Source: Candidatus Omnitrophota bacterium (GTDB taxonomy: Bacteria; Omnitrophota; Gorgyraeia; VGKH01; JBHPFN01). From it: DNA of 64,000 bases. Each line of letters starts with the position of its first letter. Position 1 is the stretch's first letter. Location: contig JBHPFN010000004.1 in NCBI GenBank assembly GCA_042571725.1, positions 507 through 64,506 of the forward strand, in the 5' to 3' direction. The notes under the pieces are model-generated. The model was not told where the DNA came from and searched no databases. It worked only from the letters and a program-made list of their open reading frames with translations. Shown here one piece after another: positions 3,001 to 28,160 of this stretch. Made by a program: the position numbers and the translations under genes.

Positions 3001-6000
3001 TTATCGGGGCAAAACCGGGCTGGGCAAGGGCAACAACGAAGTTGATTTACACATTCACTCAAAACCCTATTCTCCCGGAGCAACGCTGCTCTCCGAAAAG
3101 ATTGTGGATGAAGCAGTTGAAAGGGATTTAAAGGCCATTGCAGTTACCGATTACCATTCTTTGAGAGGCACGGTGAAAGCAATACGCTACGTTGAAGAAA
3201 AGGGATTGAATAGTAAGATTGAAATCATCCCCGGCGTTGAAATTGAGACAAAGGAAGGCTATCGTCTGCTGGTTTATTTTCCTGATGTTCAACGGTTTAG
3301 AACTCATTTCGATAGAATTGAAGCCACCATGCCCGAGATGGAGAAGAGGACCGCGCGAGAAGTTTTTCGGTGGGCCAACACTTCCGGTTTTGGCGGCGTT
3401 GCCATTTGTTCCCTTTCGGGCGAAGGTCAAAAACCGACCAACGAGCGAGAGATGGTTAAGCTCTTACGTCAAGGGTGTGACGGTTTTGAAGCAGATCACT
3501 CCTCATCCCGCAGCCGCAGCGTAGTTAATACCTTGATGATTCTTAATAACTGGAACTTTTTCTACCCTACTTTTGCTAAGATTATCACTGTGGGCAGCAA
3601 TTTTTATGACGGTCGTAAGCAAGAAATCGGCCGCGGATGGCCCGGTAGAAGAGACTTTAGACATGCGTACAGTTGGGGTTATGATTTAGTTGAGGATCTT
3701 AAGGCTCTGGCAAACCGTAAGATTCTTCAGCAAGAGCAGAGTGATGGCACGCTAGCCTTAGGCCCTGAATTCGATCTGCGTGAGTATCCTTATGTGTTAA
3801 ATTCTGCCAGACAGGTTGAGAGAAGTGCGACGCCGATGATTGACCTGCATGTGGTTTCTTCCTGTTCCCACAGGAAGCGTCCCTCGCCATTAGAGATTAT
3901 CGAATCAGTCTCACGCAGGGGAGTCAAAACAATTGCCTTTGCCGACATAGGGACTGCGCAAGGTGCCATAGATACAAAAGAGCTCGCTGCGGAAAGGGGA
4001 GTGGAGGTTATTCTCGCGGTTGAGATTCATACCAATGAGCTTGAGCATCTTCTTGTGTATTTTATTGAAGGAGCGCAGCGCATGTCTGCTGAGGATATCG
4101 AGATTCTCATTCAGCAATCCAAGAGAATGACCGTTGAAGAGACGATTAACTGGGCGCGTGCCTTAGGCGGCATTGCTCACCTGGCGCATCCGGGATGGTA
4201 CGGAGAACCGTTTGATATAGAGAGGTCCCGAGCCTGGTGTAATGCAGGTTTAGGCGGTTTTGAAGTTGACCACGGATTTTTTAGATCAAGAAATCGGCTG
4301 CCAATTATGGTGTTTCTTTTTAAACACAACCTATCAGAGATCTGGAAAAACCCCGATGGTTCAAGCCTTGATTTAAAAACCATGACCGTCGGCAGCGGCG
4401 GCAAAGGCATACCCTGCCAAGGCTGGGAACATAAAACACAATGGCCTGATGCTCCTTCGTACGGGCCTGGGGTTGTGGAGGCATTGAAGCGCAAGGCAGC
4501 AATGCAAAACGCACACGCAACAGAGAGCACAGCTTTGCCGGCAGCAGGCCAATCCGGAACAGGTGATGGAGTAAGTTGCTTTATGGGGATGGGATCCGGC
4601 GCATTAGACACCATATTAGGGACGTTTCTGAATTTGTTCAGAGAACTGTCCCTCATAGGGACACACTTAGCTTTAGCATCAGAAACGTCCCTAATTAGCT
4701 TTGGCGGGATGGTGTTGGGTGTGGCCATTGATGCTGATGACGAATGGAGAGAAGAGCTTGATCGAATAAATCATGAATTCAAGCAACTACAAAAGGAAGA
4801 AGGATTATCAACAGAAGAATATGTAGACAGAGCAAATATTTTAATCGTGGAGCTTGCAGAATATGCCAAAAAAGCTTGCATGGATATAAATGCGTTTCCT
4901 CTTTATGAGAAACTCCTTCTTTCAAAGCAAGAAAGGGTAAAGGCTGATCCGAAATACTATAGAGAAGGAAAAAGAATAGATCCTTATGAAGAAATTGCCA
5001 AACCGCTTGGAAGAGGTCCGATTTTTGTGTTTATTAATCCTTACTCACGCCCTTACGGCTTTTGGTTACCGACAAATATTTTCCATCTTTCTAATGAGTT
5101 AAGAGCTGCAGGTATCGCTCAAGGTCATTCATCTATTGCTTCTGGCGATGTAGTCAATGTATCTTCGGCTTCATTAGATGATGAAATAAGAAAAATGCGA
5201 AACTATTATGGAGACAGAGAATTGATTTATGGAATATCGACTAGTGAAACATTATATCCGGCATGCATGGAATTTGTAAAAGCAATAAGAAGGAATGAGC
5301 CAGAGTCCTTGGTTGTTCTAGGCGGACATATGGTTAATGCTGACCATGAAAACGTTGCCAAGCATGCAAGGCAACTAGGGGTAAATGTTTTAGTCAGAGG
5401 AGGAGCAAGGAATCTCCCTGAGTTAGTCAAGGCATTAATCGGCCAAAAAGCAAACGAGCCTATAGGAGCAGATTTAAGGAAATTTGTAGAAAGTCAACAG
5501 GGAGTATTGTTGCTTGCTGGCGGTAAAGAGGCAGAAGGAAGATATTATGATATTGGAAATGAAGCAGAGACCTATCCTGACTTAGAAAGCAGAGTCTTGC
5601 ATCCAAGCGTTGTAAGGTATGCGGCAGAACTTTCTGCAAAAGGTGCTTATCTTAAAGAAGAAGACAGAAGAACAATGACTATCCAGATAACTTCGGAGAT
5701 TGGATGTCCTTATGGGTGTGATTATTGCTCCGGTCCCTTTAGCAAGGTTAAATGTGTAAGCGCAGGAAAATTGATTGCTGAAATAGAAGAGATTATAGAC
5801 ATTCTAGGCCTTGAGAATGACATCGTTATTGAGCTTACAGGTGCAGACACACTGATCAATAAAAAACGAATAAGAGAGTTCTTAGATATTATTTTAACTG
5901 ATAAGAGGCAGCTTATTCCTTATCTGAAGAGATCAAAATGCACTGCATCTGTACGCTCATTCTATGTTGAAGGAAGATTGGATGAAGAGTTGATAGATAA

Positions 6001-9000
6001 GTTAGCCCAAGTTTTTGGCGTTGTGCAAATTGGAGTTGAAAGCGGTGACGATGAAGAACTCGTACGATGGGGCAAGGGGGTAACATGGAGTCAAACAGAA
6101 GCTCTTTTTGAGGCAATTGAGAGAGCAAATAAGAAACACAAAACATCTTTTTCAGTTGATATGTATGCAATTGCATCTGGACTAGAGACGCGGCCACGTA
6201 ATTTAATTAACTCATTAGCAAATCTCCTCTATGCCTTTTTGCGATATGATTGCATCGGAAGAACCTATGTCATGTCTGTAGTGATACCTGATATTGGATC
6301 AAGAGTTTTTGTACGACTAACTGACGATGATATGAGAAGGATGGATCCTGATTACAGAAGACAGTACAGAATACTTGAAGAATTAGATTGTTTCTTATAT
6401 GAGCACGTTCTTCCAAGAGACGCATTGGTAAGAAGCTTTTTCGTAGGTAAGAAGCTAAGAGAAGAAGTTCTTGGGGCTACGCGCAATGAAGGATGCCCGA
6501 GAGGCTTGGAAGCAATAAGTATTTATGAAGCGCTGTGGAATTTTGGTTATTTATGCGCAGAGCAACGATTAAGACTTACCAAAGAAAAAGAAGAAGGAAC
6601 TAATTGGAATGAAGAAAAACAAGCAAGGTTAGATGAGTTAATAGATGTAATTGATCTTTTTAATGAAAAGCTTAGCTTTATGAAAAGAACCGGACTCAAA
6701 GACAAATATGATGCCATAGTTGAAAAATATTCTGAGCCAGATGAAAGCCAAGGTCGTGGCGGCGGGGCGTTTATTTCTTCCTGGTGGCCAATATTGATTC
6801 TTGGTGGCACGACTCTTGTCGGAGCGCATTTCTTAGGCGTGCAGGGTGCGGAATCAGCTATGATGTTACCGATATTTTTGAAACTCCGACGCCGCGGGCC
6901 GCCCTTCGGCAGGATACGGCTTGCGTTTAATCGAGCAGTCGAAAAAATAAAGAATGAAAGAGATGAGTTAGTCAGAAAAGGATTTATCGGCAATCAGTAT
7001 TGGAGAGATAGAGATAATATTAAAGATGAATTGATGTTGGTCTTTTTTGTAACCGCTGCATACTCATTTTTGTTTAAATACGTACTTGAGGTTTTTGGCG
7101 GCGCCCCTCCGAGCTTATCGATTGCCAATTACATCATTATTGCCATTTTTATATTTCTAATCACTCTTAGCGCCTCAGTAGGACACCCGATTTTCCATAT
7201 CATTCATGCCTATCGAATTAACAAACGGAATAAAAAAGCCGGAATAGAGTTACCGACGGCCAAACAGAGAATCTCTGTTCTTAAAAGACCATTCATTGTT
7301 CATAACACAATAACTGTTCTTGCCATTGCCGCCGTAATGATCGTTAACAACGATATTCTACAAGGAGTATTTGTTTTTGCAGCGATTATTCATTTCTGGA
7401 GAGGAGCCGCAGCGCGTGTAAGTACAGATGGCTACGCAATAGAATCGCTAAAGAAACACGGGCAAGCTTACGACATGTTAAGAGACGGATTTGAGGATGT
7501 GGTAAGAGATGTGCGCTTAGGCGTAATGCAGCGTATCGGGCTTCTTTTTCCGATTGCAATTGAGGCAGAAGGAAGAAGGTGGCAGGTCCACCCTGGGACA
7601 CTCGGGCCGTTTGCAGAATATGTTACCTCGCGTATCGACGCATTATTATCTCGAGGAGATCGAGGCAGCGGTGAACAAGATTTCGACGTGGCGCCCCCTG
7701 TCCCGAGCGCAGTCGAGGGGCTCGCATCAGATGAGTCAACGATGGATACTCGGGATTCGCCGCGGGAAGGCGGCGGCGTAATGATGAGTATGTGGGGGCT
7801 GTTTACCACGCTTGCCGGCCTTTTCTTCGGTGGGATGGTGTTGGGTGTGGCTGCAGATGCTGATAACGATGAGAGTGCCACAGGTAATTTTTGGGCTGAA
7901 GAGGAAGACGTTGAGCTCACAAAGGTCATCACGCTGGAATTATATCTTAATCCTCGATTTAGGGAACTGAGGGGTTTATTAAGTTCTTTAGGTATAGGCA
8001 GAAACTTTAACAAAATACATACAGGTTTAAGATTTGCTCGATTTCTACTTCATGAGGAAAAGGCTCATCCTCACGTCAGCGTAAACGCACTATTATCGCG
8101 CGCTCGAATGCTCAGGATATTTATTGAAATGATGAGGGAGTATTTCTCGGCAGAAGAAATGGTTGAGATTTTTGCGCTCTCATACACGGGATTATTTTTC
8201 AGCCATCAAGTTGAAGGCGCAGAAGAAGCAATTTCGTTACATGATAATAAGCTCAGAGAGACTCTTTATCCTAATGAAATCTTTAATTTAGGGTTAGATG
8301 AGAAGCAATTTGTGCCAATGGCATTAGTGGTGTTGAGTTGTCTGGAAAGATTGGAAAATCCGGATAATGAGACTACTCCCGGAGTAGAAACGCCTACACG
8401 AAGGGTTGTGAGAGAATTCATTGACACGACACTTAATGAGTATATCCCGCGACTTCAGCAAGAGAATCAAAATATTCACCAGGGAGCACCGTTTTATCCT
8501 CCTTATCTAGGTAGTGCAGGTTGGCTCATTGATTGGCAGGAGGGCGCTCGGGAGCGTAGCGCATTATTGGGAGATCACTGTAGATATCACGCCTATCAAT
8601 TTGGATATAGTGCTATAAGGCAGATAGGCTGGGGTTTTAGCGGAGGGCGGATCTGGAATATGATTTCAACACACAGGCACGACTATCCAGCCATTGTTGG
8701 GTTTATTGAGAAGCATTGCAGGCTTGCAAGCGGCAGGATTAGCCTTAGGTTAATTAAAGATGTATTTCAGGGGGGTAAGGCATTTCCAAACCTACCAATG
8801 CTTGAGGAATTTCTCACCAATCGGCCTACCACGACCATCGATGAGCTTATGCAATGCAGCAGCGCTCCATTGATAACACCCTATCACATAGATACCAATA
8901 GGGGTGGAGAAATATACGTACCCATTGGATTTCAGCTTGGGAGGGAAGGCTTTGGTATGGAACATATGAAATCTAAAGTTGCTCAAAGGAGAATTGATCT

Positions 9001-12000
9001 CCAAGAGCTATTAGGAGAAATGTGGTTAGATACTATAATTAAAGTTGGAGTGTTACCTATTATTGGAATGGGATTGCAAGTTCCCGCGGCACAAGGAGAA
9101 AGGATGTTTTTCTTTGGGAAGATAAATCCTCATAGAGTTAGATGGCTACAACAGACCAGACAAGAGATAGGTAGGTTTCAACCATTAAGCGATGAAACCA
9201 TAGATCTATTGGGAAACATTTACTTGCAGGTTGTTGTTGGCCTTGTTGAGGATGAGCACGTCAGAGGCTATAAGGGGAATGTAATAACCGCTTTTCCGAT
9301 TGTTGAGCCCCAAGAGGTAGCTGAGCAGGTATTGGTCAGCGTAAAGGAATTAGATGGTAGAAGGGCCTTGAGTCGACAAAGCATTTATCAGCACATAGTA
9401 CAGCCGTGTAATAGACTTTTTAGGAGATGGGGTGTTCCTTTTGTGATACGACGGCATAAAGAAGGTAAAAGAAAATACACGCTTGTGCCTACTAACGCTT
9501 CAACTGGTAGCGGAATAATTGCTTCGATGTGGGGAATCGTTATTTTACTTTCCGGTTTTTTCTCCGGTGGCATGGTGTTGGGGGTGGCAGAGGGTTTAGG
9601 TTGTAGTGCATCCTTACTGCCGCCGATGTATACCAATGCGCAGGAGGGTAATTTTGTTGGACGCTATAGCAAAATTATTGAGCAAGAAAAAGGCCGAGTT
9701 ACCGCAGATGATGTTGAAGAATTGCGCCGATTCAGCCGTCTCATACCAGAGTTGCTCACTTTAAAATCACTTCGAAGTTGCGATGGTTCAGCATTAGAGG
9801 TTTTTGACCTACTTGAGAACAATGAATTTGTGGTGAGGTGGCACGATGCAGTAAGCATGGATGCCGATAGAGGAGATTCTCATTGTTATTGTAGCGTTGT
9901 CATCGCAGGAGTGAGATTTATTCTGGATTTAACCGCTGAGCAGTTTGAAACCGCTCCTTCAGAGGAAGAAAAATATACATTTTTAGGTATTGTATTAATT
10001 CCCGCACGGGTTGCGTTTGAGCTTAGGGAAAGGCTTGATTTCTATTCTATGCCCGATGGTTGTCGAGGCTATACATCTACGTATGTTGATTGGAGGAAGG
10101 CTCAAGGTTATCGCGTTGAGTATGAAGAAGGCAACCCCGAACTCCTAGAAAATAGAAATCTAGCAGGGATGGTTTCTCTTATCTGTGCACTCGAGGATAT
10201 TGACCCCCGGGTAAGAGAAGCAGCCCAATCACTGCTGGATAATTCGCCCTATGCATTAATAGGCCCCTATAGGAGACGATTGCTGGATCCGGGAGTGAGC
10301 TGGACGATAAGTGAGTCCGTTGCTTCTTTTCTGCTTGATGAATATTTTCGATATGCAGATAATTTTGATGTTCCATTGCCTTTGTTTGTGGTTGACGGTC
10401 CTTCCGGGATTGGTAAGACCACTACAGCGCAAGAGATGGTCAGGGTCACAGGAAAAGGAAAAATAAAATACCAACTAGTGTATTTAAACCTCGATATGTT
10501 TCTGAAGGATCAGGCGTGGCGCCATGAGATAAGAGATAAAATTGCCAGCGGAGAATTACATCCGGACGACTTTGATGAAAGGGATTTCTTTGATTACGAT
10601 AGGATTATTGCGATGTTAAGGGATATTGATGAGTTTCGTCGCTCAGGAGATGAAACCGGTGTGTTGGTGCTTACTCATGTGTGGAATCCCGAGAAAGGAC
10701 GATATGAGGATCTGCAGATTCCCTTGACAAGAAATACAGTTTTTCTTATTGACGGAAAGTATGCACATGAGAAAAGGCTTCGTCCCTTTTACGGCAAGCA
10801 TCCTTTTAAAGTCCGTTTAGACGAGGATGATGATTCGATTGGGAGGAAGTTTGAACACAGAGAACGCGCCAAAGGAAAAAGCGAAGAAGAGGTAGCCAAG
10901 CAGATGATATTTCATGATTTGGTTGTTTTACCTCACTTTAGGCGCTATGCCCAAGAGCCGCAAGAGAACCTTTTTGTCTTAAGATGTTCTCACGGAGAAA
11001 TCCCAACCGAGCCGCTAAGAGATGCAGATGTCGACAGCGTAGAGAGAGAATCCCGCGCTGCAGGCGGCGGGGCGATGATGTTGATGTGGGGGATATTTAC
11101 CACGCTCACCGGTCTTTTCTCTGGCGGGATGGTGTTGGGTGTGGCTGCAGATGCTGATGGAGGTAGAAAGGATGACGCCGTGCCGCCGGCGTCGGGGAGG
11201 GTTGCCAGACTTACCGATAGATTCCTCGGATGGTTGAATGAGCGGTTATTCGCACTACAGCGAATCATCGGCAGAAGACTTTCCGAAAGCCGGCGTTTAA
11301 CGGCAGTTTGGACCAATGAAGAGATAGCTTTAGAGGGTATCTTGCAATTTTCTCCAGCAGAATTAGAAGAGCAAAGACAAAATATCATTAATAGGTATAT
11401 AGTCCCGCAGCGCAGACTACAGTATTTACCGTACGAAAGTAGGCTGCGTGGAAGAAATAGATGGCGCTGGAATGATACGGTGTTCGTTGTTCTTCTTGAA
11501 GATGGTACACAGGTAACTGCGCACTCCAGCCATATCCGCGGAGTTCTTATAAAAGTTGTTCTAGAAATTGAAAATCGGATTCAGCTCGAAGAAAGAAAAC
11601 GGAGGCGTAAACTTTCTGATGATGAAAGAGAGGAGTTCATCCGTCAATTGACCCTTGTGGTGGCTTCCACCGATTACTTAGGAGAAGCTGTGGCTATTGT
11701 GGCGCGGCTTATGGGAGTACAGGCACAGATATTTCTTCCGCAATGGGCTTCACAGGGAACCATCGAAGCTCTCTCGCAATTCGGCGTATCCGTTGATAGC
11801 CATTTACCGGATTATGATGTTGCCAGCGCCCACGCACGCAACTTTTTTGAACTTCATGCCAACGCCATACTCATTGACGGCGCCGAAGACGAAACCAAGG
11901 CCCGGGGCGCAGCCATTGCCGCTATGGAGATGATGCACGAATGGCATAAGTGGATCGGCTACGAAACCATTAAGGCCATGGCGCGATTGATCGCCAAGTA

Positions 12001-15000
12001 TGAAAAAATGAGCCTCGAAGCAGTTATCCGAGAATATGATTACTCAGAACTTGCCCAGCGCTGGGAGGATCTAGAAGAACAATTGAAAAGAAGAGATCAC
12101 AGGCACTACACTTCTGTTAATGAAGATGTCACCATGCTTTCCAGCGCAGAGGCCCAGCCACTCCTTGAGGAGCTTCGGCAGGATGAGGAACTCCTCGTTG
12201 AGTTGGTTAGGCCTATCGGATTGGTACCGAGTCAATTCGTTGTTGTTGGCGGCACGGGATTGGACGCCGCGGGTACAATCGAAGGGCTCAGACGCGACAA
12301 TGTACCGGTTACTATCGTTGAGCCATCCGGAGCTAATCCGCTCTATTGTTCTTTAACCGGAAGAGAAGAAGGTGAGCCGCCGATACTCCTTAGGGCCTCT
12401 GAGACCAGCGCAATCGGTGTACGTGTGCGCTCAGTCGGTCATATGCCGCATGCGGTGCTTCGAAAGACACTTCATAGGGCCGTAACCGTAAGCGAAGAGT
12501 CTGTTGAAGAAATGAGAAAATTCTTAAGCGCAACAGGTCTCGATGTAGAAGGAACCGGCGCACTCCCGCATGCAGCGGTTGTTTTAGAGCGCGCTGATCT
12601 TTTTGACGATGATATCATTTTGCACGTGAACAGTTCGCGCATTGATACTGAGCTCAGTCAAGAAGAATTAGCGCATCCGAAGGCTAAGACGGTTTTCTTT
12701 AGGATCCACCCCAGACTCCAGGAACTTTGGCTTTTGGTACGAGGCGCTATTCGCGTTCCAAGGTTCTCAAGAATCTTCTTCCAAAGAATGCGATTTCAGA
12801 AAATCGGCGGCGAGCGACAACTGGCCCGCCAAGTGGCTGCTGTCTACGAAGAAACAATTCAAGATATTCTTAGGCGATGGGATGCTATCCCCGAAAAAGA
12901 AGAAAGACTGCGCGGTAGAATGAGGCAGCTGATGGGCTTGCTAGTGGAATTAGATATTACCGATTTAAGCGTATTTCGCCTACGCCCGCGCCATTGGATT
13001 TGGCTATACCAAAATACGGTTTTGCAAGGTGAACAGCCTGCGTTTGTCGCACAGGTACGCGAAAGGGTAGAGACCATCTGTAGGATCACGGAGGTGCAAG
13101 ATTTTACGTCATTAGCCGATGCCGAATTCGACGGTTACGGTAAAAAGCTTAAGTCTCTTGCCAGAGAACACAGCAAAACAGATTTTGTTCAATTAGAGCC
13201 GAAAGACTTGATTGATCTATTCGAACACTTCAGCGCAGGGCTACCCTACGATGCAAGGCAGTGGATCCGTCATGCCCTTGATCCGCTGCTCTGGGGCCGT
13301 ACTCAGAAAAACTGGGGAAGAGCCGAAGCAGCACGCGATGAGATTATAGAATCATTTAACCACGACCAGGAGGGCGTAGCCACCGCGTACTATGATAGGA
13401 GGGAGGCGGTGCCGATAGATAGGTTAGTGCCCACACAAGACTTGAAAGCGGAATTTCCGGGCGATGATCACGCAGGAATTGTTAAGAGATTGAGACGCGA
13501 CATCAAAGGAGGCCTTATCGTACCTATTACGGTTTTTGAAATACCGGGAAGTGATGATTATTTTCTTATGTGGGGTGGTCCTCGTGCGTTGGCCAAGTAC
13601 CAAGAAGGCCACGCCACCATAAATGCCTTTATTGTGAAAGTAGCATCGCCGCAAGAGCAAACGCTACAGTTCCTATCCCAGCAGATGCACCTGCGCTGCC
13701 AAGAGAAAGGATTGGCTTCAATTTTGGATCTATTCCCGGATAGTCCGACCAGATTCTTAAATAAAACCCTCCTCTATCCGCCAACCGCGCACCGTATAGA
13801 AAGAGCAATCGACAGCGAAGAAAGAGAATTTACACCGATGACGGACTTTCCTATAAGAGGCGCTCACGTGCGCATAGCTACGTTCAGGTCTGAGGTTCAG
13901 GGGGCGCCGTTAGTCTTTATTCATACCCGCAGAGCGGGAGATACATTGGAGATTTATTTCTCGTTGGCTGCGTTTATACTCTTTCGCCAGGTATTTTCTG
14001 AGTCGGCAAGGCAGGATGGCCTGGAGATGATTGTCGTGTATCTCTCCGAGCGGCTTATCCGGGAGAGGTCGCACACAACGGCCTCAGTTGCGTTTGAGAC
14101 ATACAGCCAGAGATCTGCCCGTATGAAGGAAGCCCGCAGAAGATTGAGACTATTGACCCAGAAGGCAGAGAAGCGAAATCTTACCGGCGACTGGAGAGTG
14201 ACCGGCTCACGCGGAGATCGCGAGCAACCGGAATCCATGCCGGTGGAAGAGGACGATTGGTCAGTGGTCATGCATGCATATTTGATAGTGAGAAATGCGC
14301 ATCTTTCGGCGGACCTTCCTGCCAATAGACATGAATACGAAGACGTTTTGGCCCGTGTAACCAGAAGTCTTTCTGGCCGCCAATTTACTATCACTGTGGA
14401 TGGCAGGGTGATCTTGGCGTATGATGCAGGGTTACAACAAGCTCCGGTCGTTCACGATCTTTGGTTGACGCAAAGGGGAAGAAAAGTATTCTACTCCGCG
14501 GCTGGCATACTCTTTTCAGAAGAAGAACCCTTTATCACGATTATCGGCTCTGCAACACCAACCGATAGATCTGAACATGATACTGATGAGTTTCCAAGAC
14601 TCGTCGATGATAACGAAGCAACTGATGCTACCCCTCCGGAGAGACCGGAGGGAGATCAACCCAGCGGCGGTGGGGCCAGCTGCTTTGTGGGAATAGAGTT
14701 ATTCCAGTTAAGTCTGTTAGGACAGTTAATACAGTTCGCATTCGGTGGGCTGGTGTTGGGTGTGACGGTAGATGCTGATAACAATAATATATCTGAAGGT
14801 CCGCCTGAGCATAGATGGTGGGATGAACAAGAAAGTCCAGCTTTTGATGTATTAGAAGCACAGCTTGAAGTCCAGCGTAGGATTATGGAAAGACTTCAAG
14901 AAAGAATTAATGGTGCAATTCATGGCAAATTTAGATTAAAGTCGACTCCCTTTGTGTGTGCAATCTTTAACATAGCACACGCAGATGCTTTGCGAATACA

Positions 15001-18000
15001 AGTTTTTCTAAGTGAGGAAGAAAGAAGCCGCGACCCTGAATTAGCAGATGCCCTGGCAAGTTTGGGTATGAGTAAGGGGTGGATTGGAATAATGGATATA
15101 GTAATAGCTACAGACATAAAAATGCAACCTCTATTGGTCATTTCGGAAGTATTGGTTGCAAAAGCTTATTGGAGACTTAGAGATAGAGATAAACGAAAGA
15201 TTAAGCGTTGGCATAAATTACTTGTTAGCTACTTTGAGGCGATAAAAGAGGAAGTCGGCGTAGCAGAGGTTCTGAAACCGACCAATGGACAAATGAAATC
15301 TCTTCCCGCTCTTCAAAGGGAATTTGAGGAGAGAGCTCATTTACCAGATGCAATCGATGAACTTTACGGCAGGCCTTCTCGCGAATACAGAGATGAAGAA
15401 AGAGAAATTTTAATTTGGAAGTATGGCGGTTGTACGGTGAAGGCGGATTTTTGGGTTTATAGAGAGGCATTCCTCGTATCAGACAGTTCAACAAGGGATA
15501 CTCAGGATTCGCCACAGAAAGGTGATGGGAACGGCATAATAACTTCGATGTGGGCACTGTTTACTACACTTGCCGGCATTTTCTCCGGTGGGATGGTGTT
15601 GGGTGTAGCAAGTGGGTCAGATGGAGTTGGCAGTCCCTCATTGGTTTCCGAGAGGGGAGATTCACCTTTATCCATTTCGGAAACAAAACGCAGAGCATAC
15701 GATGAGCTCGCGAGAAGAAGAAAATATGATCTTGGCGAAAGACCTGCAATGAAAGAAGCAGCAGCATCAATTTTTGGCCAAGCGATTCCGCTCGATGAAG
15801 TAAGGGGCAGCAAAGTTTTGGACGTGGCTATAGGAGCGGGTTTGATATCCGGATATGCTGCAGAAAATGGTGCCAGAGAAATTGTAGGCGTAGACATATC
15901 GTCCGGAATGCTTAAATGGGCGGATAGCAACCTCGCCCCATTTACATCAACCGCTACAATACGTCTGATTAAAGGAGATATTTTAAGATTGGCCGATTTA
16001 TTCAGAAAGGAAGATGGGCAAGTAGAGAAATTCGAAATTATCACTATAGGCAATGTGCTTTCTTTTTATCCTCCTAAAGAGAGAGTAGCAATTTTATCGC
16101 AGGCATTAGAATTGCTCGAGGAGGGCGGATATATTGTTCTTCTTTATAGAAGCATGGATGAGGTGAAAAATCCTCTCGCAACTCTTGTTTATCGTAGGCC
16201 CATGATACCAAAAATCACACCAGATGGGTACGTTGAAATTCTGGAAAATTTAGCAAGAGACTTAGGATATACTGTTGAGGCAGGGTTTTATGCTGCCAAC
16301 TATGAGACAGATACGGATTATAATCGTCAGTTAAGCGATCTTGAGGTGGTAGTAAGTCACACTATGGTTCTCTGGGCAAAAAGAAAACCTTTGGCAGCTC
16401 GAAACATCGGAGATTTACCTACACCCGCGCAACCCGGCGGCGACGACGCGAGCTGTTTTATGGGAATGGGGTTATTCCAGTTAGGTTGGTTAAGTCAGTT
16501 ATTTCAGTTCGCATTTGGTGGGATGGTGTTGGGTGTGGCAGAGGGGTCAGGCTCATTTGAACAAGCAAGAGGATTTACATCGTATGAATACGAGAGATAT
16601 GGTTTGAACCTTTCCGATATACCAGATGAATTTGCGTGCGAGCCGCTCGCTATTATTAGAATAAGAGAGAATCTATCGCAGAGAAATTGGTTCTGGAGGC
16701 ACGCGACGCCCAAGATTCGAGAAAGAGCAATAGAGCGTATTAAGACATTGATGAATAAATTAGAAGCATTGCAAAGTTTAGAATCATTCAAAAATATTAT
16801 CGGAGACAGGAAGATCGTTGCTATTTACACGGCTGGTAGTTATCCATGGCATGATGACCCAGGGGATATAGATGTTCATTTCGTCGTTAGAGGGGAAAGA
16901 GGATTTGAGCTGATATATTTATCTGCAGAGGAAGCTGATGAACTCAGCATTGCTTTAGAATTCACCGGTAGAAAAATGACAAGAATTGCATTGCAGATAT
17001 TTGGTACAACCAATTTAGAAAGGGCGGCACAAGACATAGAGATCAAAGATGGAGGAAATCTTCAAAGAAAATTATTGACTATATATGGTAATGCTGTGCA
17101 ATTAGGCGGATTAGATTTATTTGAAAATAGTCAACCACCCGCTAATGACTTTCACATTTTAGCCTCCTGCATAAGAAGTTTAGCTGTTGGTTCCGTGAGA
17201 GAAAAACGTCTTCGGGAAGCAGAAGCTATAGAAGATTGGTTGGCAGAAGGGATAACCACCCCGAAGATGGGTGTGGCAGAGGTCGGTGGTTTTAGTAGTG
17301 GGGTAGACATAATTACGATTGCTAACCAAGTAGCACAGCGAAGCGGTCATGCGGGAAGCGTGGCTTTAAAAATTCACGCCTTTTTAAACAGAAGCAACCC
17401 AGATATACATAGACATGCTGTTTTACTTTCGCGTGCCTCGAAAAGTTCTGTGCCTGGCATGAAAAGATCTAAGGTTCCACCTAATCCTGTTATTAGTATT
17501 GCCTCGGCAAAATATATGCTTCGCGCAGCCGCAATGAGGGCCGGTAAAACGAAATATTATGATTCGTCGATTCCAGAAGAATCTAGCAACCCAGAAGATT
17601 CGCATTCTGGCGGTGGGGCGATGTTTATTTTTATATGGCCGGTGGTGATTCTTGCAGCTTTACTTGCTGTGCCGACGATTGCGTGGGCGGGTGAATTTGG
17701 AAAGCTTATTGATACAGCCAATTCATTTTATCAATGGTATGCAGCTTTATTATCAACGCATACTCTTATAGTTAAGATTTTGACCTCAGCGATATTGTTG
17801 GCTATCGGAGATTTCATCGCCCAATGGACCGAGAAAAAATCCCTACGATCATTAGATAAGTGGCGTCTGATTTATATGACAATCCTGGGTGGCGGTTACG
17901 GTATCGTATGGCACGTCCTGTTTATGCTGCTTGAGAAAGGTTTTCCTGGTAGGGATCTTCTAAGCGGAGTCTTACCGAAGCTATTAATTGATCAAGGGCC

Positions 18001-21000
18001 TTTTACAATGTTTTTTCATTTTCTTAACTTTTTTATGGTTGGGTTATTCGGAGGCGTTGGGAGCTTCTTTGCAACCGGAGTCTTTACATTTACATTTGAA
18101 AAGTATAAAGACACGATAAGGAAGGATTACAAACTAGCTTTATTCACAAATTGGCTGTATTGGCCAACCATTCAAGCGGTAAGTTATCTTATTATTCCTC
18201 TTGATTTCCGAGTCCTATGGGTGAATATTGCTTTTATTTTTTGGGCACCTATTCTTTCTAAAATAGGTCATGGCGAATGGAAAGCATTCACACGAAAACT
18301 CGCAAGAAATCCTCGTTCCGGCGGTGGGGCGATGATGTCAATATGGGGATTATTTACCACACTTGCCGGCCTTTTCTCCGGCGGGATGGTGTTGGGTGTG
18401 GCCGCAGATGCGGGTGATGTGAGCGCCACAGCTGATTCGCACGATTATCTGATCCTTGCTGAAGCGCAAAGGTTATTTGAAGGGGAAGGGATTGCGCACC
18501 GCGTAGAAGAGGTTATCGCCTTCACTGGTCCGCAACGGGCATTCATTGAATACGCCATATCAAAATTGAATCAAGGTTATCAATTAAGTGATGTTGTCTA
18601 TCTGGTCGAATCGGTCCGGCAGACAAGTTTTGCGCACGTTGAGGAGTTATTATCAGATGATAGGATTATTTGGTATGCCAATCGACCAAAGGCTACAATT
18701 GGCACCATTATATGGCATACCGTGAATTGCGCGTATCGGGACAATATCCATCAAGCCCATACACTGATGTATGAGTTAGGTATCGCCCCGAGTTGCCTAA
18801 AGGGAATCATAGATGCCATCGGTTTCATAGGTATTGAAGACGTTCGCTTATGGCTAACGGGTCGTGAGTTTCCAATCCGTCCGAGTGAGATCTTTAGAAT
18901 TGCGCACCTTCAGAAACAGTCATCTATGGAAGAGGTGAAAAAGGCTTTAAGATCAGGCACTGAATATCTCCGGATACAGGATGACATGACTGAACCACGA
19001 TGCTTTTCTTCGATAGAAGAGGCAATAGAAGTTCTTGGTCACGAAGAATTGAAGGCGCTGAGAGTTAGCCCGCAGAGGCCGCTAAGAGTTTCGGATGTGC
19101 TTTATGTTGTTGCTGTCCTAAAAGAATATGGGGCTGATGAAGTCAATTTTGCCATGTCGTTTGGCGTAGATCCATGGAAGTTACAGTATGTTTTAAAAGG
19201 CTTGAGAAGCGATCGAGAAAAATGGTTATCTTGGCTTCAGGAAAGAGAACGATACGGACGATACAAAGTAACTTTAAATCGAGCCGCTCAAAGCCGCCGC
19301 GCTCTAGAAAGCTTTCGGACGGCAGAGCAGCATCGCCGGGAACAAAGAGGTTTTCGATTACGGCTATTTGACTTTGAGGCTCGGATTTATCCATTTTCGG
19401 ATTATGACCCCCGGGCAAAAGCTGATGCGGATGAAGATTTCGTATTAGCCCTTTATCCGAGCGGTTCAGATTCTTTAAGAAGCCCAAAGAAGAAAACAAG
19501 AAAGATAGGTTTTCATTATCCGCACGGCACGATAGGCGGTATGCGGTTTAAGATCATCAATAATGAAATTATTGTTTGTGACGTTCAAAGCGACATCCAG
19601 GAAGATCTTCACCGACGCTATAAATATTGGTATACGATGATTCTCGTGGTGCTTGAAGATTTTGCAGCTGAATTTAGTATCACTCGCATCATCGTGCCAC
19701 CAGCGTATGCTCAATTCAGATTATGGGCAGAGCAACTCTACGGCCCGAATCCTTTAACAATGTTTTCTTTTTATGCACGAGGATATCCTGCTGGAGATTA
19801 TTCACTTCGACAAATGCCCGACGGGGCTATGCATGGGTTAGTCGCCATGCCCTTTGCGTGGACCAAAGGGATTAACGCAAGAGACGAGCTTGATGTTTCA
19901 ACCGTGGAACGTTGTTTCTTTGAACTTTTGGAAAGAGAAATAGGTCAGTCAGCGAAAGAAGAAGCGGTAAGAGGCGGAGGAGCAATGGTTTCGATGTGGG
20001 GATTGTTTACTACGCTTGCCGGCCTTTTCTCCGGTGGGATGGTGTTGGGTGTGGCAGGCGGGCTGGATGAAGCTCGTTCTTCCACACCGGTGGAGACAGA
20101 GAAGAGCAGATCGCAGGTGCTATGGAATGTGGCAGAAAGATTGGGTTCTTTGACTTCTATTGAAGAGAGAGGTGCTTGTGAGGATGCATTTGCGGATGCG
20201 CTAAAAACTGCTCTTGCGAGAAAAGAGGCAATGAGATTACTTGATTTTATAAGGTCTAGAGCAAGAAGAGAGCCAGACGAAAACCAGCCTTGTCCAGGTT
20301 TTTATTATGTTCGTCAAGACTCGCAAGAAAATCTCGTGTTAGCTCGATTTGCTGAAGGTGACTTTCTGGCTGCTATTTTAGGCAGCAAGTTTGCACCTCC
20401 CGGCAATGAACAATCTGTGTGGTATGGCAATGAGGCAAAAGACATCATGCTCTATACAAATGTTAACAACAATGGCTACATCGTAGTTTTTCCTAGTGCT
20501 GCATTTAATGCATTAGCTAATCAAGGCCAAGCAAAACATGTGACTGGTTTACCAGATCTAGAAGAATGGCACTATTTCTATGTTAAAGACGATTTGCCCA
20601 TTTCAGGGGAAACTACACCACTAATTTTTATAGGCACAGGACTGAGCGAGAAGTTAGAAGCTGCACAAAGCGAAGATGCACAATTAAGAGAAAAATTGGA
20701 GGCCTTAAGAAAACAAGTTCAGATTGAGGTCTTAGATCTTACAAAACAAACCATGGTTGATAACCTAGAGGCTGCACTTGCGCGTCATGGTTTCAAATTT
20801 GTGGGGAAAAAGTTCTGGCCGAGCTGGAAAGTTATTATTTACAATGTTCTGCAGGTTCCAGAAATGAGCGAGATTACAGAAAAAATATTAAGATCAGAAG
20901 GCGAAGACAGTGCCTCTGTTTCCTCGCCAGGAGGAGATCAACCCACCGGCGGCGGGGCATCCCTCGCATCAGATAGGCTAACAGATGATCGAATATTCTT

Positions 21001-24000
21001 ACAAGCTGTTAGGGATGCTTTACATGCACGACCTTTTGTCCCAGAACAACTTATTCGTGCTCTAAAGCGCGATCCAGAAATCCGCAGATTATTTGAGACG
21101 AAAGCAAAATCCTGGATTAGTCAAAGAGTTCGGGCAACCTTAGAAGCACGTCACCCAGGAGCCGTGAAACAGTGGGTTTTGGACACTCTCGAAATACATA
21201 CTCTAAGAGTCATGCATCAGTTTGAGCGCTATTTAGCAGCGGAAGAGCTGCCTTCAGGCGCAGATCTTAGCATGTTCAGATTGCTGTTAGCGCTACACGA
21301 TATTGGTAAGCCGCTTACAAAAGGTGATGAAGATACTCGTAAACAATATGTGCACACGCAAGATACTATTAAAGAATTGCGGCATAAACTTCCTTTGCCC
21401 GCAGAGCAAATTGATTTAATGATGGCTTTGCTTGATGGAGACCCTCTTGGTTTGTATATGCAAGGATCTACAGCAATAGAAAAGACCAGGACAACTATTA
21501 TTGGGATGAACAATAGAGTTAAGTATCCATTAGCAGACTTCTTTAGACTACTTACTCTCTATTATCAATCCGATACACTAAGTTACACTTTGGATGCAGG
21601 GTATGATTCTGATTGGCTGGCGGGACTCTTTGTTTTCGATATAGAACATTCAAGGTTTGTTTTTGATGATGAAGCGGGAAGGATGAAATTTTCAGGAGAA
21701 AAAGAAAGCAGATTTCGAGCTTTGGAAGAATCGATTGTTAGTTTAAATGTCGGGCATCGGGAAATCTACCCAAAAGGCGGTGGGGCGAGCTGTTTTGTGG
21801 GAATAGGGCTATTTCAGTTAGGACAGTTAAGTCAGTTAGGTCAGCTTGCCCTGAGTGCAGTCGAAGGGTTATTTCAGTTTACATTTGGCGGGATGGTGTT
21901 GGGTGTGGCCAGCGGGTCAGATGAATCTCGTTCCTCCTCGCCGGCAAGAAGAAACAGGAGAAATGACGATGCTAAAAGGAAGCTAAGGGAAGCTTTTGAG
22001 AGAGGGGAAGATATTGTCATAGCGCTTTCAGATAGAACACCACAAGCAAAATTGTTTGCATTTGACTGGGATGGCATTTTTGCAAAAGAGAAGGGTTATT
22101 TTGAAAAAGCCTGGGCAGCTTTAATAGTTATGATAAAGAACAAAACAGAAAATATTAATGCGGGGGAGCTCAGCCCTGAGCAGGTTCAAGAAGGTGAAGT
22201 TTTTAGAAGGGAAACAAGAGGCATGGAATACGCTTTACGCTTCGATCGACTAAGAGCAATGGCCTTGCAGTCTGGAGCGGATAGATCTCAACTAAGAACT
22301 GATCAAGAGTGTGCAGATATATTTTACGAAATAATTATTAGGCTCGCTCAACAAGATTTTGGAGAAGATTTAGAGGATTGGATCTATCCGGAATCAAAAG
22401 CATTTTTAATAAATTTAAAAACCGATCATCCAGATAGGTTAACATATGTTGTTACAGCAAATATTCAAAACGCCTTTAGGGAAATAATAGTTTCACGATT
22501 TAGCATAAAGAGATATTTTGACGGTATTTTTGGGCATCCTTTGAGATCAAGCCCGGATAACATTATAAATAAGACTACTATTTTAACCGAATTAAGACAG
22601 AGAAATGGTTTGGGTGTTAATGAGGTTGTATTTTTTGGTGACGCGGTAAGCGACATAAGATTCGGAAGAGAAGCAGGTGTAATCGTTGTTGGGGTAGCCA
22701 ATACTTATGAGAATGGTGTGCAATTAATAGATGCGGGAGCAGATATTATAGTTACTAGCCTAGCTCCTAGAAGAGAAATTATGCAACTATTAATGGATAG
22801 CTCCGCTTCTTCACCGACGGGAGAAGGTAAGCCAACAGGCGGAGGGGCGATGGTTTCTATATGGGGACTGCTTGCCACGCTCACTGGACTTTTCTCCGGT
22901 GGGATGGTATTGGGTGTGGCAGCAGATGCTAAAAACGATGAGGGCGCCGCAGGAGATTCAGAAACAGATACCGCCTCATCGTTGATGACAGTGCGAACGT
23001 TTAGCACCGGAAGGCATTCATTCCAAATTGTTTCAACTCCGCACGATACCGAATTTGGCATTGACTTATCTGTCCCCCATGAAGGCAGAGAGGAATGTGA
23101 GATTGGAATACATCTATGGAGATTTGCACGCTTGGCTGAATTTTTTATGGATTCTTACCGAGGTAATATGGAGAACGGGCCCGGCTATTTAGAACAGTGG
23201 ATGAGGACACACGATATAGTTACTACGTTTCTTGATGAAGACGAGCATCGCTTGCTGTGCGGTGAGAGATTGACATTGTTAGGGCGGCAGACAACTGTGG
23301 AAGATCGAGAACTTCTTGAAAAGAACTTTATTCCAGAATTATTAGGTTTTATTGTTACCATCGCAAGCAACGATGAAATAAGGGAGCAATTTCTGAGGAT
23401 TTGCAATGAGGAGCTGGTAAGATGGAGCGACCCATATATTCGAAGCCATTTTATTCCTGCAGAAATTCAAACTGTAATACAGCAATTTCAAGGCGGGCTT
23501 AGGGGGCTTGGTAACGTCAAGCCTCTTGATGTTGAAATAATGCAAGTTTTGAGAATTTTGTCGAGAAGAAGGCTACCGGTAAGAAAATTCTTCATGTACG
23601 AAAGAGACACTCGATGGGCTAGAGACGAAAAACTGCTCTTACCTCATTTGGAAGGCGAGCCTTATTATTTCGTCTTCCCAGGTGAAGGAGAATTTGATAA
23701 GGATGAGACCCATTTATTCGAGAGAGGTGCGGTTGTTTCAGGAATCGCGAGAACGCCGTTTTTAATTTATGCAGATTCGGTGGATGTACAGGAAGTAGAG
23801 GCCTTAGGTCGTTATGCGCGAGAAAATATTCCTGGATACGAAGCGCTCAGCGTGTATAGGCTACCGGCCGGCTGGGCCACATTTCAATTTGGAAATAAGA
23901 TTTACCTTTTAGATAACGCTCATCTTGATTGTGTGAGCGGATATATTCCAAGAAGATTTAGTCATCGTAACGAGAATATTCTTTTACTCGATCCTCACTA

Positions 24001-27000
24001 TTGTCGGGCAATAAAAAATCATAGCGAATTAGCAAGGTTTCTTTCTGAGCAGGGACCACATGTAGGCGTTGAGATTATTGATTCCGATGAAACACAATTT
24101 AATCCTGCGAATTTTGCTGATTTATCCGAAGACCACCTACTCTTTAATTATGCCCCTCATTTGATTGGAAGATTACAGTTGAGAGAAGGTATGTATAGCA
24201 TGATTGATTCAGGAGTAAACGCATTGACTGCAATTACTACCTTGGGGGGTAGCATCGGTTGTCTTATGTCACGCACTCCCATAACTTCAGCATACCGACA
24301 CCAATTCGCAATAGCGGGAGAAGATCAAGTCAGCGTCAAGCGCTCAGGCGGCGGCGTAATGATGTCGATGTGGGGATTATTTACCACGCTTGCCGGTCTT
24401 TTTTCCGGTGGGATGGTATTGGGTGTGGCAAGCGGGTCAGATGATAGTCATCTCTCCTCGCCGGCACAGACTCTTTCACTCGATTCGATCTCAATCGAAC
24501 GTATTGAAGAAGATGCATATGACGCATTGACTGATGAAATAAACGCACTCATCGAGCCAAGCGCCCAATTTTATGATAATCCTCTCGGTCGAGCTGTATT
24601 GTTTCATCGTCTGTTATCTCAAGGTGATTATTTTACCTTATCCCTTTTTAATATTTGGGAGTTATTAATTAAAGGAAGAAAACTGGTTACTCAGGTTTTA
24701 ACGGCACGTTCGCCAGACGGTCAGCTATGCGGCATACACATGTTGAGTCTGGCAGATACAAGTCGCTATGTAGAAAAATATCCTATGCTAGCAGGGGAGC
24801 AACTTTTTGCAGCTACTGTGGCGGTGTTTCCTCAGGCACGAAGGTTGGGTTTGGGAAGTATGCTTACTCAGATAAGCTTGACTCTTGCTCATAGGCAAGA
24901 TAATGTGAGGCTCTTTAGATTTTCCGCTCTTAAAGGTAATGAGCTTTCAGGCAGAACTATGAATGCTGCAGCACGTACCCTGCAGGCAACACCTCAATAT
25001 CTCGGCGAGAGACATTCTAACCCAGGTGTTTTACTTGATGATTATCTATTGAGCATGAATGGAGATGCGCCATTTTCTGCTCGCGCTGAGGCTCTTTCTA
25101 AAGAAGAAGATAAGACAGGAAGGGGGGCAACGGCTTCGATGGGAGGATTGCTTACTACACTTACCGGCCTTTTCTCCGGCGGGATGGTGTTGGGTGTGGC
25201 AGCACTGACCTTTGTAAATGAGGCAGTACAGCACCAACTTTCTCTGGATGTATTAGACATAGTCAGTGCAGCACTGAAACTTGTATGCGAGGCAGTGCAG
25301 CACCCACTCAATTCAACACATATGGGTGCAGTGCCAACTTCCTTTGCCTATTTATTTGGAATAGTTGGTGCAGAAGCAGGTGAAGGTAACCCGTCGAAGA
25401 AAGCGACAAGAGAAGATTTAAAGCGTCGCGTAAGAGAAAAGAAAATCATATGGTCGCTGACCGATAAGCACAGAGATAAGCTTCCATTGCTTTTGGCTCT
25501 AGATATTATTCCGGGCTTATCAATCAGTGATGTCAGAATTAATCGAAATCGCTTTTTTCATTGGGTTACGACTGTCCGAATGATTGCTGACAGCATTCGG
25601 AGAAAAGAAGATGGATTGTTGTCGGCAGTTACGGATATTGGAGCAACATTATTTCTAGCTCACGCCAGAGCTGAAGCGGACATTTATATAGGCAGTAGGT
25701 CTATAACTCGGAAATCGATTACAGAGGGCCGAAAGATTGCTGCACAAGAAGGCCGAGAGATTTTGGTTTTAGTCTCAAGAGGTATGTATGCACTTAGAAA
25801 AAACATACTTGGACAACTTGAAAGATCTTGTCAGAGGGCTCAAGACAATGGTGCTGACGGAATAATTATTGAGCCATCGAGTAGAAAAGAGGACATTGCA
25901 AGTATCGTTACAGCGCTTAAGCGGAAATTTCCGCAGCTACTCATTGGTATCGGAGTTAGTGCAGGACTGACCGATGCTCATTTACTTTTCAAGGAAACAG
26001 AAGCTGATTTTATTATGATAAGGACTAACTGGATTTCTGATGAGCCTATTAAAGAAGCACCGAGGCTTCGCAGAGACGTTGACGAGGTGCTCGCAGAGAA
26101 AGGCGGAGCAGTTCATTCAACCTTAACGGGAATCACCACACTCACACAGGATATCATAGTAAAGAATCCCCGCACAGGTAAATATGGTAGATTTGCTGAA
26201 AGTCAACTATGCGACTGGAGAGATCCACTGATAGTCAGAACAGCAGAAGAGATTGTGCAGGGTGCAACAACCGATGCAGAAAAGGCGCGCAGGATTTGCG
26301 TATGGCTTAAAGAGAACATCGAATACCATCTTGGCCACGGAGCGTACTGGGATATGCCTGCTTCCGGAACACTCGCTACCCGAGATAAAGAACCTAATAA
26401 GGGTAAGATTAAAGCGCACTGTTTTAATTGTGCGAATATACAGGTTGCGATGTTACGTGCTGTAGGTGTTTTTGCACGTTACGCGTCCGTTGAGAGAGAG
26501 ATGGTTGCGGCTAAGAATTTACTTCCTTCGTGGGCATTAGCAAGGATGAGGATATTCAGACATATCTTTGCAGAGGTTTTTGTTGACGGAGCATGGCGCA
26601 GATTCGATGTTACCATGGATGATGATTTTGATACGCCCGGAGAGTGGGAAAAACATGATTCACCGGAGACGCAAGAAGAATACGCAATTTTAGATGCGTA
26701 TGCTTTCGAACAAGCCAAGAGAGATACCCATGCCGAGCGCGACGCAATCGACGATTTTCTTCAGGAAAGACTGCGAAGGCAATTAAGCCGCGGCGGGAGC
26801 CTTGCTACATTCTTTACTCAATGGAGAGAGTGGCATCCTGCTAGAGATGAAGAAGAAGCAAGGTTGCTTAAAGAAAGAGTAGTTTTATGCATTCAGCATT
26901 CGAGAGATGTCACATCGGAGTTTCGGGAAGCTTTAATAGCATTGCAAGAAGATGTGCTGAATTTCGTTTCGACATTCGGGTACACAGAAATTATGAGAGA

Positions 27001-27732: not shown

Positions 27733-28062
27733 ATGCATGCTCAAGATTTACGATCAAATGTACGTTATGGCTGTACAGTTCCTATCATGTGCCGCCGTGG
27801 TACTGCCTTCGAGCATGGTCAGACCAGAGACATTTCAGAGAACGGCATTGGGTTAATCTCTCAGAAGTTTATCCCGAAGAATTCAAAACTTATCTTAGAG
27901 ATTGCCCTTGCTCCAGCCACGGAGCCTCTGATGGCGTTGGGAAAGGTTAAATGGGTTGAGAAAATGGGTTATTCAGAGATGTATCGGCTTGGGCTTCAAT
28001 TCGAGAACCTCTCTGTAGATACCCAGAAACGCCTTTCCAAGTTCTTCAGGGGTACAGTATAA
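27733..28062 (+). CDS. PilZ domain protein (c-di-GMP receptor-type)
   Basis: RSNVR (RxxxR) and DISENG (DxSxxG) motifs. 109 aa single domain. Confidence 0.7.
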   Translation: MHAQDLRSNVRYGCTVPIMCRRGTAFEHGQTRDISENGIGLISQKFIPKNSKLILEIALAPATEPLMALGKVKWVEKMGYSEMYRLGLQFENLSVDTQKRLSKFFRGTV

Positions 28063-28160
28063 CTCACCAATCACTACTGAAAGCCTGAGTTTTTCGACAC
28101 GAAAGAAGGTATGTGTACATCTCTATGTACGCATCGGGTCATCCATAAGGAGTGATCGAA

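Follow-up and report, generated by a model that had tools for sequence, protein, structure and literature searches.

On the forward strand of a 64,000-nucleotide (nt) stretch of a contig (JBHPFN010000004.1) from a Candidatus Omnitrophota metagenome-assembled genome (the whole stretch is called the window below), a giant open reading frame (ORF) strings together about 18 unrelated modules that are separated by junction elements. Thirteen junctions contain a copy of the 20-nt core GGGATGGTGTTGGGTGTGGC (positions 4706–25200), all on the forward strand and all in one frame of this single ORF, where the core encodes the peptide G-M-V-L-G-V-A. The synonymous sites of the core are far less variable than those of equally conserved codons 3–60 nt away, which is not a matter of codon bias, and the two halves of the junctions, judged by the independent relationships of their sequences, have been reassorted around the core. 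The core is probably the place where the modules of the giant gene recombine in frame.

Conservation of the core codons

The junctions are ordered as a variable tail, GGG, (A/V), a hydrophobic Gly-rich helix, GG-MVLGVA, and an acidic or Ser/Gly head linker. Two tail types were recognized, DTRDSP (junctions J0, J4, and J8) and GDQP(S/T) (J7 and the junction at 20948). According to their hydrophobic segments, the junctions include those of class A (AMMSMWGLFTTLAGLFS, 9 copies), class C (SCF.G..LFQL...FQFAF, 4 copies), and class B (F.S.WWP..., 4 copies), the last of which do not have the core; one junction has neither a hydrophobic segment nor the core. The 17–18 hydrophobic segments reach Kyte-Doolittle 19-residue mean peaks of 1.7. 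The heads are of type H1 (ADADNDE-like) or type H2 (SGSD.S..SSPA-like). The class A repeat runs from the GGG codons through the helix AM(M/V)S(M/I)WGLFTTLAGLFSGG and the core into the first part of the head; its 8 other copies (starting at 7768, 9505, 11062, 15526, 18319, 22837, 24346, and 25117) show 63–79% identity to the reference copy (Table 1). Two other class C left halves (16430–16537 and 21767–21874) show 82% and 66% identity to theirs.

A scan of both strands of the window allowing up to 3 mismatches recovered the same counts and positions as had been given in a preliminary description of this DNA, that is to say, 8 exact copies and 5 copies with 1–2 mismatches (Table 1). The number of core-like matches expected from 100 shuffles was 0. 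There are no copies on the minus strand, and every copy is thus a direct repeat. Five of the 7 substitutions in the core are synonymous (GGC and GGG in J5; GTA in J8, J14, and J15), and the 2 non-synonymous ones are both in J7 (ATG to CTG, Met to Leu; GCN to ACG, Ala to Thr). The 20-mer is the center of a 24-nt block, GGY GGG ATG GTG TTG GGT GTG GCN, which is translated as GGMVLGVA and is polymorphic at the third positions of its end codons. This block is the only stretch that the 2 core-bearing junction types, class A and class C, have in common.

Synonymous diversity, measured as the proportion of same-amino-acid pairs with non-identical codons, is 0.15 over the 5 degenerate core codons, compared with 0.46 in the helix upstream of the core, 0.56 at the Gly(-1) and Ala(+6) codons that abut it (individually 0.51 and 0.62), and 0.65 in the GGGA tail, where it approaches the codon-usage saturation value of about 0.74. 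Five random informative columns reached a diversity as low as that of the core with p = 0.006. Within the class A copies, the core values are 0.15–0.21, whereas the synonymous sites 30–60 nt upstream are near saturation, at 0.52–0.75. Conservation at the synonymous sites of the junction, as claimed in the preliminary description, is therefore borne out by the difference between 0.15 in the core and 0.46–0.65 in the flanks. The synonymous drift that it had described in the upstream helix codons is also present, except that one of its examples, gcc/acc, is an Ala/Thr replacement and not a synonymous change. By contrast, conservation is not confined to the 20-mer: codons -4 to -2 of class A (CTT TTC TCC) are nearly fixed, as are those of the heads when compared within one head class.

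The diversity minimum is at the center of the block, where TTG is unchanged in 13 of 13 copies, and diversity rises toward the polymorphic edge codons. Directly before the 20-mer, Gly is encoded by GGC (5 copies) or GGT (8 copies), and after it Ala is encoded by GCA (7 copies), GCC (3 copies), or GCT (2 copies). Across the synonymous sites the distribution of diversity is bimodal, with constrained sites at 0–0.28 and free sites at 0.47–0.75, the free GGY sites being surrounded by constrained ones. The polymorphic Gly codons (-1 in all junctions and -5 in class A; 4703–25203) vary between C and T only, except for one GGA at -5, and they lie in CCGG, GGCC, or CpG contexts; the C/T-only variation could stem from methylated-cytosine hot spots.

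The possibility that the shared codons are merely the preferred ones, or are shared by chance, has practically no probability. The preliminary description had pointed to a strongly skewed codon usage as a circumstance in which identical codons would be expected, and such a skew is excluded: the codon fractions in the giant gene and 22 neighbor genes are 0.17 for GGG (the rarest Gly codon), 0.23–0.28 for GGT, 0.24–0.29 for GTG, and 0.18 for TTG. Because codon usage is unskewed, the probability of the codon string given the peptide is 5.8e-4 per copy, and 0.008 exact copies would be expected among 13. In addition, the glycines of the GGG tail, which are equally invariant as amino acids, use GGC, GGA, GGG, and GGT in near-random proportions. 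The unskewed usage and the freely varying tail codons together rule out codon bias as the cause of the invariance. Nucleotide-level constraint or homogenization is centered on the core, with trivial causes excluded.

Mosaic flanks and the cause of the invariance

All 4 combinations of helix class and head type occur: a class A helix is followed by an H1 head in J4, J6, J11, and J14 and by an H2 head in J8, J12, and J15, and a class C helix is followed by an H1 head in J2 and J7 and by an H2 head in J9 and J13. The classes differ at dozens of positions, and therefore recurrent point mutation cannot yield the 4 combinations. The similarity of the left flanks (-66 to -4) is uncorrelated with that of the right flanks (+23 to +62; Mantel r = -0.12, p = 0.82). 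The right flanks of J13 and J15 are 72% identical, the highest value of any pair, and their left flanks 21%; the corresponding values for J12 and J13 are 68% and 16%. The longest exact run through the core has a different partner for each junction and extends to different sides, for example from -17 to +19 in J11/J16, from 0 to +32 in J4/J6, and from -6 to +21 in J2/J13 (nt from the first base of the 20-mer). Because the left and right halves assort independently, the junctions have, as far as can be read from their sequences, recombined around the core. The tails point in the same direction. The J0 tail (6–52) shows 87% DNA identity to the J4 tail (7737–7783), yet the helices that follow are of class B in J0 and of class A in J4, and the J7 tail (14651–14676) shows 92% DNA identity to the tail of the helix-less junction (20933–20958). 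These pairs place a second breakpoint zone at the GGG, where tails, too, have recombined with helices.

From these patterns, we infer exchange between the copies as the cause of the core invariance. Our tentative preference, held with slightly less than even confidence, is that homology-dependent exchange between junction copies keeps the core invariant on top of an invariant peptide and allows modules to be shuffled in frame. The exchange could proceed by crossover within the short identity tract, by short-patch conversion, or by templated repair between direct repeats, and it would act on a segment whose amino acids are already fixed by selection (protein-level selection keeping two-thirds identical). 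An exchange between 2 cores would delete, duplicate, or swap whole modules with the frame intact, because every copy is in the same frame, and the junction would thus be the joint by which the giant gene gains, loses, and reorders modules. If a mismatch must be flanked by identity on either side for exchange to occur, an invariant center with polymorphic edges is to be expected. Homology-dependent exchange is favored because it accounts for the mosaics, for the central diversity minimum, and for the wider low-diversity zone within classes; the spread of G+C content at third codon positions (GC3) among the modules (0.29–0.50) is compatible with different module histories, and we count it for this reading as well.

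Several observations weigh against homology-dependent exchange. (i) The exact runs through the core are 20–37 nt long and mostly 20–24 nt. There is no run longer than 37 nt and therefore no sign of long or recent conversion tracts. Efficient RecA recombination in Escherichia coli needs about 23–27 base pairs (bp), and the core tracts are at or below this length. (ii) The GGY codons -5 and -1 are polymorphic at intermediate frequency inside a nearly fixed class A block of 30–40 nt, which is predicted by position-specific selection and not by homogenization of a whole tract. (iii) The exact 20-mer occurs in 3 of 4 class C junctions and in 5 of 9 class A junctions. As the 2 classes share only 24 nt, conversion between them would take place nearly without flanking homology. 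(iv) No recombinase gene was found in the 36 kilobases (kb) downstream of the giant gene. (v) The evidence comes from a single sequence, in which ongoing and ancient exchange are indistinguishable.

The short tracts, the polymorphic GGY sites, and the identity across classes fit better with a direct function of the sequence, that is to say, with recognition of the 20-mer or a block of about 30 nt as DNA or mRNA at the module boundaries, with purifying selection holding the synonymous sites and the mosaic flanks being an unrelated by-product. Candidates would be a site bound by a protein or small RNA, a signal for translational pausing or for processing that is tied to membrane insertion or cleavage of the preceding helix, and a small local hairpin. 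We consider this account plausible, though less likely than exchange. The bimodal synonymous diversity, with free GGY sites among constrained ones, and a core that is identical across helix classes with nothing else in common argue for it; by contrast, 5 of the 13 core copies tolerate changes. For a hairpin, pairing is possible in class A between the core and the upstream arm ACCACGCUUGCCGG (95.7% of cells paired vs. 41–49% with a slid partner), all upstream synonymous variants are wobble-compatible, with one U-A double change in J8, and GGYG with its preceding bases can pair with UGUUGGG in both classes, the GTA variants occurring on a GGT background. However, column shuffles pair as well as the class A data (96.1% vs. 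95.7%), and the class A hairpin is therefore without covariation; moreover, the class C junctions do not have the upstream arm ACCACGCUU. The z-scores of 120-nt folds are only -2.3 to +1.2, and synonymous recoding of the core codons only gives folds at least as stable in 2.5–87% of trials, depending on the junction, so that the recoding null is not consistently beaten. Nor was a Shine-Dalgarno sequence found 5–9 nt before ATG GTG TTG, or a promoter, terminator, Rfam family, or G-quadruplex at the junctions. The preliminary description had offered two alternatives, gene conversion or recombination among the junctions and a constraint at the DNA or RNA level, for example RNA structure; the independent left and right halves back the former, and folding does not support RNA structure. 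If the conservation does represent an mRNA or DNA signal at module boundaries, it would be a new kind of punctuation within a bacterial ORF.

A number of specific nucleic-acid signals were considered and rejected. A shared RNA structure is disfavored by the unremarkable z-scores, the lack of covariation, and the missing upstream arm in class C, and Rfam gave no family at any junction, its only matches in the window being 2 cobalamin riboswitches. An internal promoter or terminator is rejected since none was found at the junctions and promoter-like matches are fewer than in shuffles. With regard to an internal translation start, the genes of the window carry AGGAGG-like Shine-Dalgarno sites at 5–9 nt spacing, whereas GGYGGG abuts the ATG without a spacer, and ATG GTG TTG, which offers 3 potential starts, has no correctly spaced Shine-Dalgarno sequence. 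A G-quadruplex of the Neisseria pilE type is rejected because there are only 2 GGG runs and the G-quadruplex-aware minimum-free-energy fold shows none. A genome-wide oriented motif, such as Chi, KOPS, or an uptake sequence, is unsupported: in 36 kb of other genome sequence, sub-k-mers of the core are not enriched outside the junctions or on the minus strand. Core 8-mers occur 0–2 times outside the junctions, compared with about 1.3 expected, and core 10-mers and 12-mers are absent there except for one 10-mer at 17268. At this site (17268–17282), which is inside a module, 15 nt (TGGGTGTGGCAGAGG) that encode K-M-G-V-A-E match the 3' half of the J9 core and the head that follows it; the chance expectation of a 15-nt match is about 0.1, and hence we do not claim it as a half-core relic.

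A difference in age between the parts of the junction is an unlikely explanation. According to this explanation, no process is ongoing: the tails and the N-terminal helix half are older, and the core-proximal part (about codons -6 to +12) spread through the gene after them, perhaps in a past burst of junction duplication or replacement, too recently to have diverged. The zone of low diversity, which takes in the heads within a class as well as codons -4 to -2, is indeed about 55 nt wide and not a sharp 20-mer, and the class C helices with their Q-L repeats may be no ancient lineage but the derived product of a local expansion. However, the abutting Gly(-1) and Ala(+6) codons are among the free sites, and the upstream sites near saturation belong to the same class A copies as the low-diversity core. 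Given this contrast inside the same copies, a part-wise difference in age still needs recombination.

A dedicated site-specific system, in which a recombinase would cross over at the 24-nt block to excise and insert module cassettes in frame, in the manner of a translated integron array or a shufflon, is very unlikely in our judgment. It would be in keeping with the heterogeneous module composition, with unrelated cassette-like modules that are each bounded by the same short direct repeat, and with the independent assortment of the sequences on the 2 sides. However, direct reading of the 20-mer reveals no dyad symmetry, inverted-repeat arms, or self-complementarity, all 13 copies are direct and none is inverted, no core copy is located outside the giant gene within the window, and neither an integrase nor a transposase accompanies it in the downstream 36 kb, where a recombinase is also missing. 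Integron attC arrays resemble the giant gene in that unrelated cassettes are bounded by a repeated element in direct orientation. By contrast, attC sites are imperfectly palindromic and form hairpins as single strands, are located between separate genes, and need an adjacent IntI integrase, whereas the core is non-palindromic and translated, with no integrase gene in the 36 kb downstream.

Relation to known systems

Short repeats serve as exchange points in several known systems, including the 17-bp direct repeats that flank the Borrelia vls cassettes, the conserved segments of the Neisseria pilS/pilE minicassettes, the conserved regions between the target-recognition domains of type I hsdS genes, and the 19-bp sfx repeats of shufflons. 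As in these systems, short DNA within coding sequence is kept identical between copies, and variable segments are recombined on either side. The differences are that (i) their cassettes are variants of one protein segment and serve antigenic or specificity variation, and (ii) they usually involve silent donors or inversions, whereas the giant gene has direct repeats only, with no recombinase or silent donor in view. Distinctive here is that whole unrelated enzyme modules are joined, all within one ORF, through a shared tract of merely 24 nt. Concerted evolution of intragenic repeats and module exchange in polyketide synthases and nonribosomal peptide synthetases are similar in their over-similar synonymous sites and mosaic boundaries. 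Synonymous similarity above that of the flanks (0.15 vs. 0.46–0.65) and mosaic left and right genealogies were both found here; long, recently converted tracts were not, the longest exact run being 37 nt, whereas the tracts in those systems span hundreds to thousands of bases.

The giant gene belongs with the giant multi-enzyme, membrane-anchored proteins of Omnitrophota, which include the Archaeovorin type (West-Roberts et al. 2023, bioRxiv 10.1101/2023.11.21.568195) and the "multi-enzyme metabolic" giant class of at least 10,000 amino acids in a recent catalog (bioRxiv 10.64898/2026.06.07.730766). They come from the same phylum, consist of very long ORFs with unrelated, highly divergent enzyme domains, and carry hydrophobic helices at intervals of a few hundred residues. 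In the present gene, Pfam detected radical SAM, methyltransferase, HAD, and HD domains. The examined parts of both papers contain no inter-module joint peptide, nucleotide conservation, recombination, or gene conversion. In the same parts, cleavage of the giants by C39 or S8 peptidases is proposed, not demonstrated, in both papers (10.1101/2023.11.21.568195; 10.64898/2026.06.07.730766), and West-Roberts et al. (10.1101/2023.11.21.568195) state that the cleavage points are not known. The GGG and the helix-GG of the joint resemble the double-glycine (C39) motif, which we take as a lead only. No C39 or S8 peptidase domain was detected by Pfam in the part of the giant protein inside the window, the N-terminus lying upstream of it, and the NCBIfam models of sorting signals (GlyGly-CTERM, PEP-CTERM, and similar) did not match the junction peptide even at E = 10. 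The last module (25202–27499) has a transglutaminase-like (papain-fold) core, the sole candidate peptidase-like domain in the visible protein.

The observations bear on how Omnitrophota genes of tens to hundreds of kb are assembled and maintained and on whether their products are cleaved. A repeated in-frame junction with an invariant peptide would supply concrete module boundaries, and a nucleotide core with recombined flanks would offer a candidate mechanism for the gain, loss, and reordering of modules. The corresponding predictions are lineage-specific cores, structural variants bounded by junctions, and mature protein termini at GGG or GG. A more far-reaching version, which we regard as improbable, is that the 24-nt block is a dedicated and active in-frame exchange site, a "translated integron," at which cassette exchange would build and continually remodel the giant genes of Omnitrophota and whose lineage-specific joint would double through its peptide (helix-GG/GGG) as a point of polyprotein cleavage or membrane anchoring.

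Searches for relatives of the joint gave little. A junction profile had no relative among 5.8 billion proteins and one marginal match (E = 5e-4) among 1.84 billion representative proteins, and half of the giant protein (4,650 amino acids) used as a query had one weak, unrelated match. The exact 20-mer gave single chance matches only (Massilia and others) in the GTDB species genomes, JGI metagenomes, and viral contigs, and a peptide-pattern scan of metagenomes yielded 411 candidates, of which 0 were confirmed. The giant protein of the source organism was itself not found in the protein collection, although its ribonucleotide reductase is present. Therefore, very long proteins may be under-represented there, and the lack of a homologue is weak evidence with regard to full-length giants.

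The giant gene and its surroundings

The giant ORF comprises at least 9,166 codons within the window, and its 5' end is beyond the window. The ORF, although listed from position 50, does not start there, since positions 2–49 are open in frame without a stop codon and encode SPTRDTRDSPQQGGGA, a further junction tail that is homologous to the others (87% DNA identity to the tail at 7737 and 70% to the tail at 15489). Thus, the giant gene continues upstream of the window, and the ATG at 50 is an internal Met codon of a class B junction. Besides the class B junctions J0 and J3 (Table 1), related class B segments are located at about 1880–1990 and 17609–17700. The class B junctions (GGGA-(M)F.S.WWP...) tend to precede membrane modules, namely EamA, a multi-helix module, and Mpv17, and they have a conserved DNA stretch of their own, TTTCTTCCTGGTGGCC (family D6).

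Table 1. Giant ORF, junction cores, and other junction elements in the window
Feature	Coordinates	Strand	Description
Giant ORF	2–27502	+	Open at the 5' end of the window; listed as 50–27502 (9,150 codons)
J0 junction	38–130	+	GGGA and class B hydrophobic segment (MFVSFWPLLLLGG...); no 20-mer
J2 core	4706–4725	+	Exact; left half class C-like (SCFMGMG...LISFGG); head H1 (IDADDE)
J3 junction	6758–6900	+	GGGA and class B hydrophobic segment (FISSWWPILILGG...); no 20-mer
J4 core	7832–7851	+	Exact; DTRDSP tail; class A helix; head H1 (ADADNDE)
J5 core	9569–9588	+	2 synonymous mismatches (GGC, GGG); divergent class A helix; head EGLG
J6 core	11126–11145	+	Exact; class A helix; head H1
Class C left half, reference copy	14657–14764	+	Family D3; encodes GGGASCF.G...LFQL...FQFAFGG; rich in Q-L repeats
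J7 core	14747–14766	+	2 non-synonymous mismatches; GDQPS tail; class C helix; head H1 (VDADNN)
J8 core	15590–15609	+	1 synonymous mismatch (GTA); DTQDSP tail; class A helix; head H2 (SGSDG)
J9 core	16520–16539	+	Exact; class C helix; H2-like head (EGSGS)
J11 core	18383–18402	+	Exact; class A helix; head H1 (ADAGD)
Class A junction repeat, reference copy	19972–20097	+	Family D1; 126 nt
J12 core	20036–20055	+	Exact; class A helix; H2-like head (GGLDEARSS)
Helix-less, core-less junction	20948–20962	+	GDQPT-GGGAS-LASDR
J13 core	21890–21909	+	Exact; long class C helix; head H2 SGSDESRSSSPA
J14 core	22901–22920	+	1 synonymous mismatch (GTA); class A helix; head H1 (ADAKNDE)
J15 core	24410–24429	+	1 synonymous mismatch (GTA); class A helix; head H2 SGSDDSHLSSPA
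J16 core	25181–25200	+	Exact; class A helix; head ALTFVNE, of neither type
Last GGG motif	27416–27424	+	Acidic C-terminal tail and stop codon come next

Pfam families in the giant ORF number at least 10 and include PALP (a pyridoxal-phosphate-dependent enzyme), 2 PHP domains, radical SAM with B12-binding, EamA, Mpv17/PMP22, methyltransferase, HAD, HD, and a transglutaminase-like core. The absence of mutual similarity reported for the modules holds between modules; the 2 tandem PHP domains lie within one module. A GNAT-like module is suspected from reading of the sequence, although Pfam did not detect one. The GC3 of the modules (122–27386) ranges from 0.29 to 0.50 and is mostly 0.29–0.40, compared with 0.40–0.55 in the neighbor genes, which the modules after J1 (0.50) and J6 (0.48) resemble. 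This heterogeneity hints at different histories or constraints of the modules.

Two small PilZ-domain ORFs (27733–28062 and 28152–28541) directly follow the giant gene. The 2 cobalamin riboswitches (Rfam RF00174; 45878–46074, 90 bits; 48740–48972, 81 bits) are located upstream of an operon for a periplasmic-binding-protein/FecCD/ABC transporter and of a TonB-dependent receptor, respectively, and a B12-dependent ribonucleotide reductase is encoded nearby. The latter is 100% identical to NCBI MFC1703510.1 (Candidatus Omnitrophota bacterium), and all database matches bearing organism names are labeled Omnitrophota or Omnitrophica, although most matches bear none. Throughout the window (1–64000) nearly all long ORFs are on the forward strand and the GC skew is positive, as would fit a leading-strand location. 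Antisense genes were also considered with regard to the core, but only 3 of the 13 junctions are overlapped by long minus-strand ORFs.

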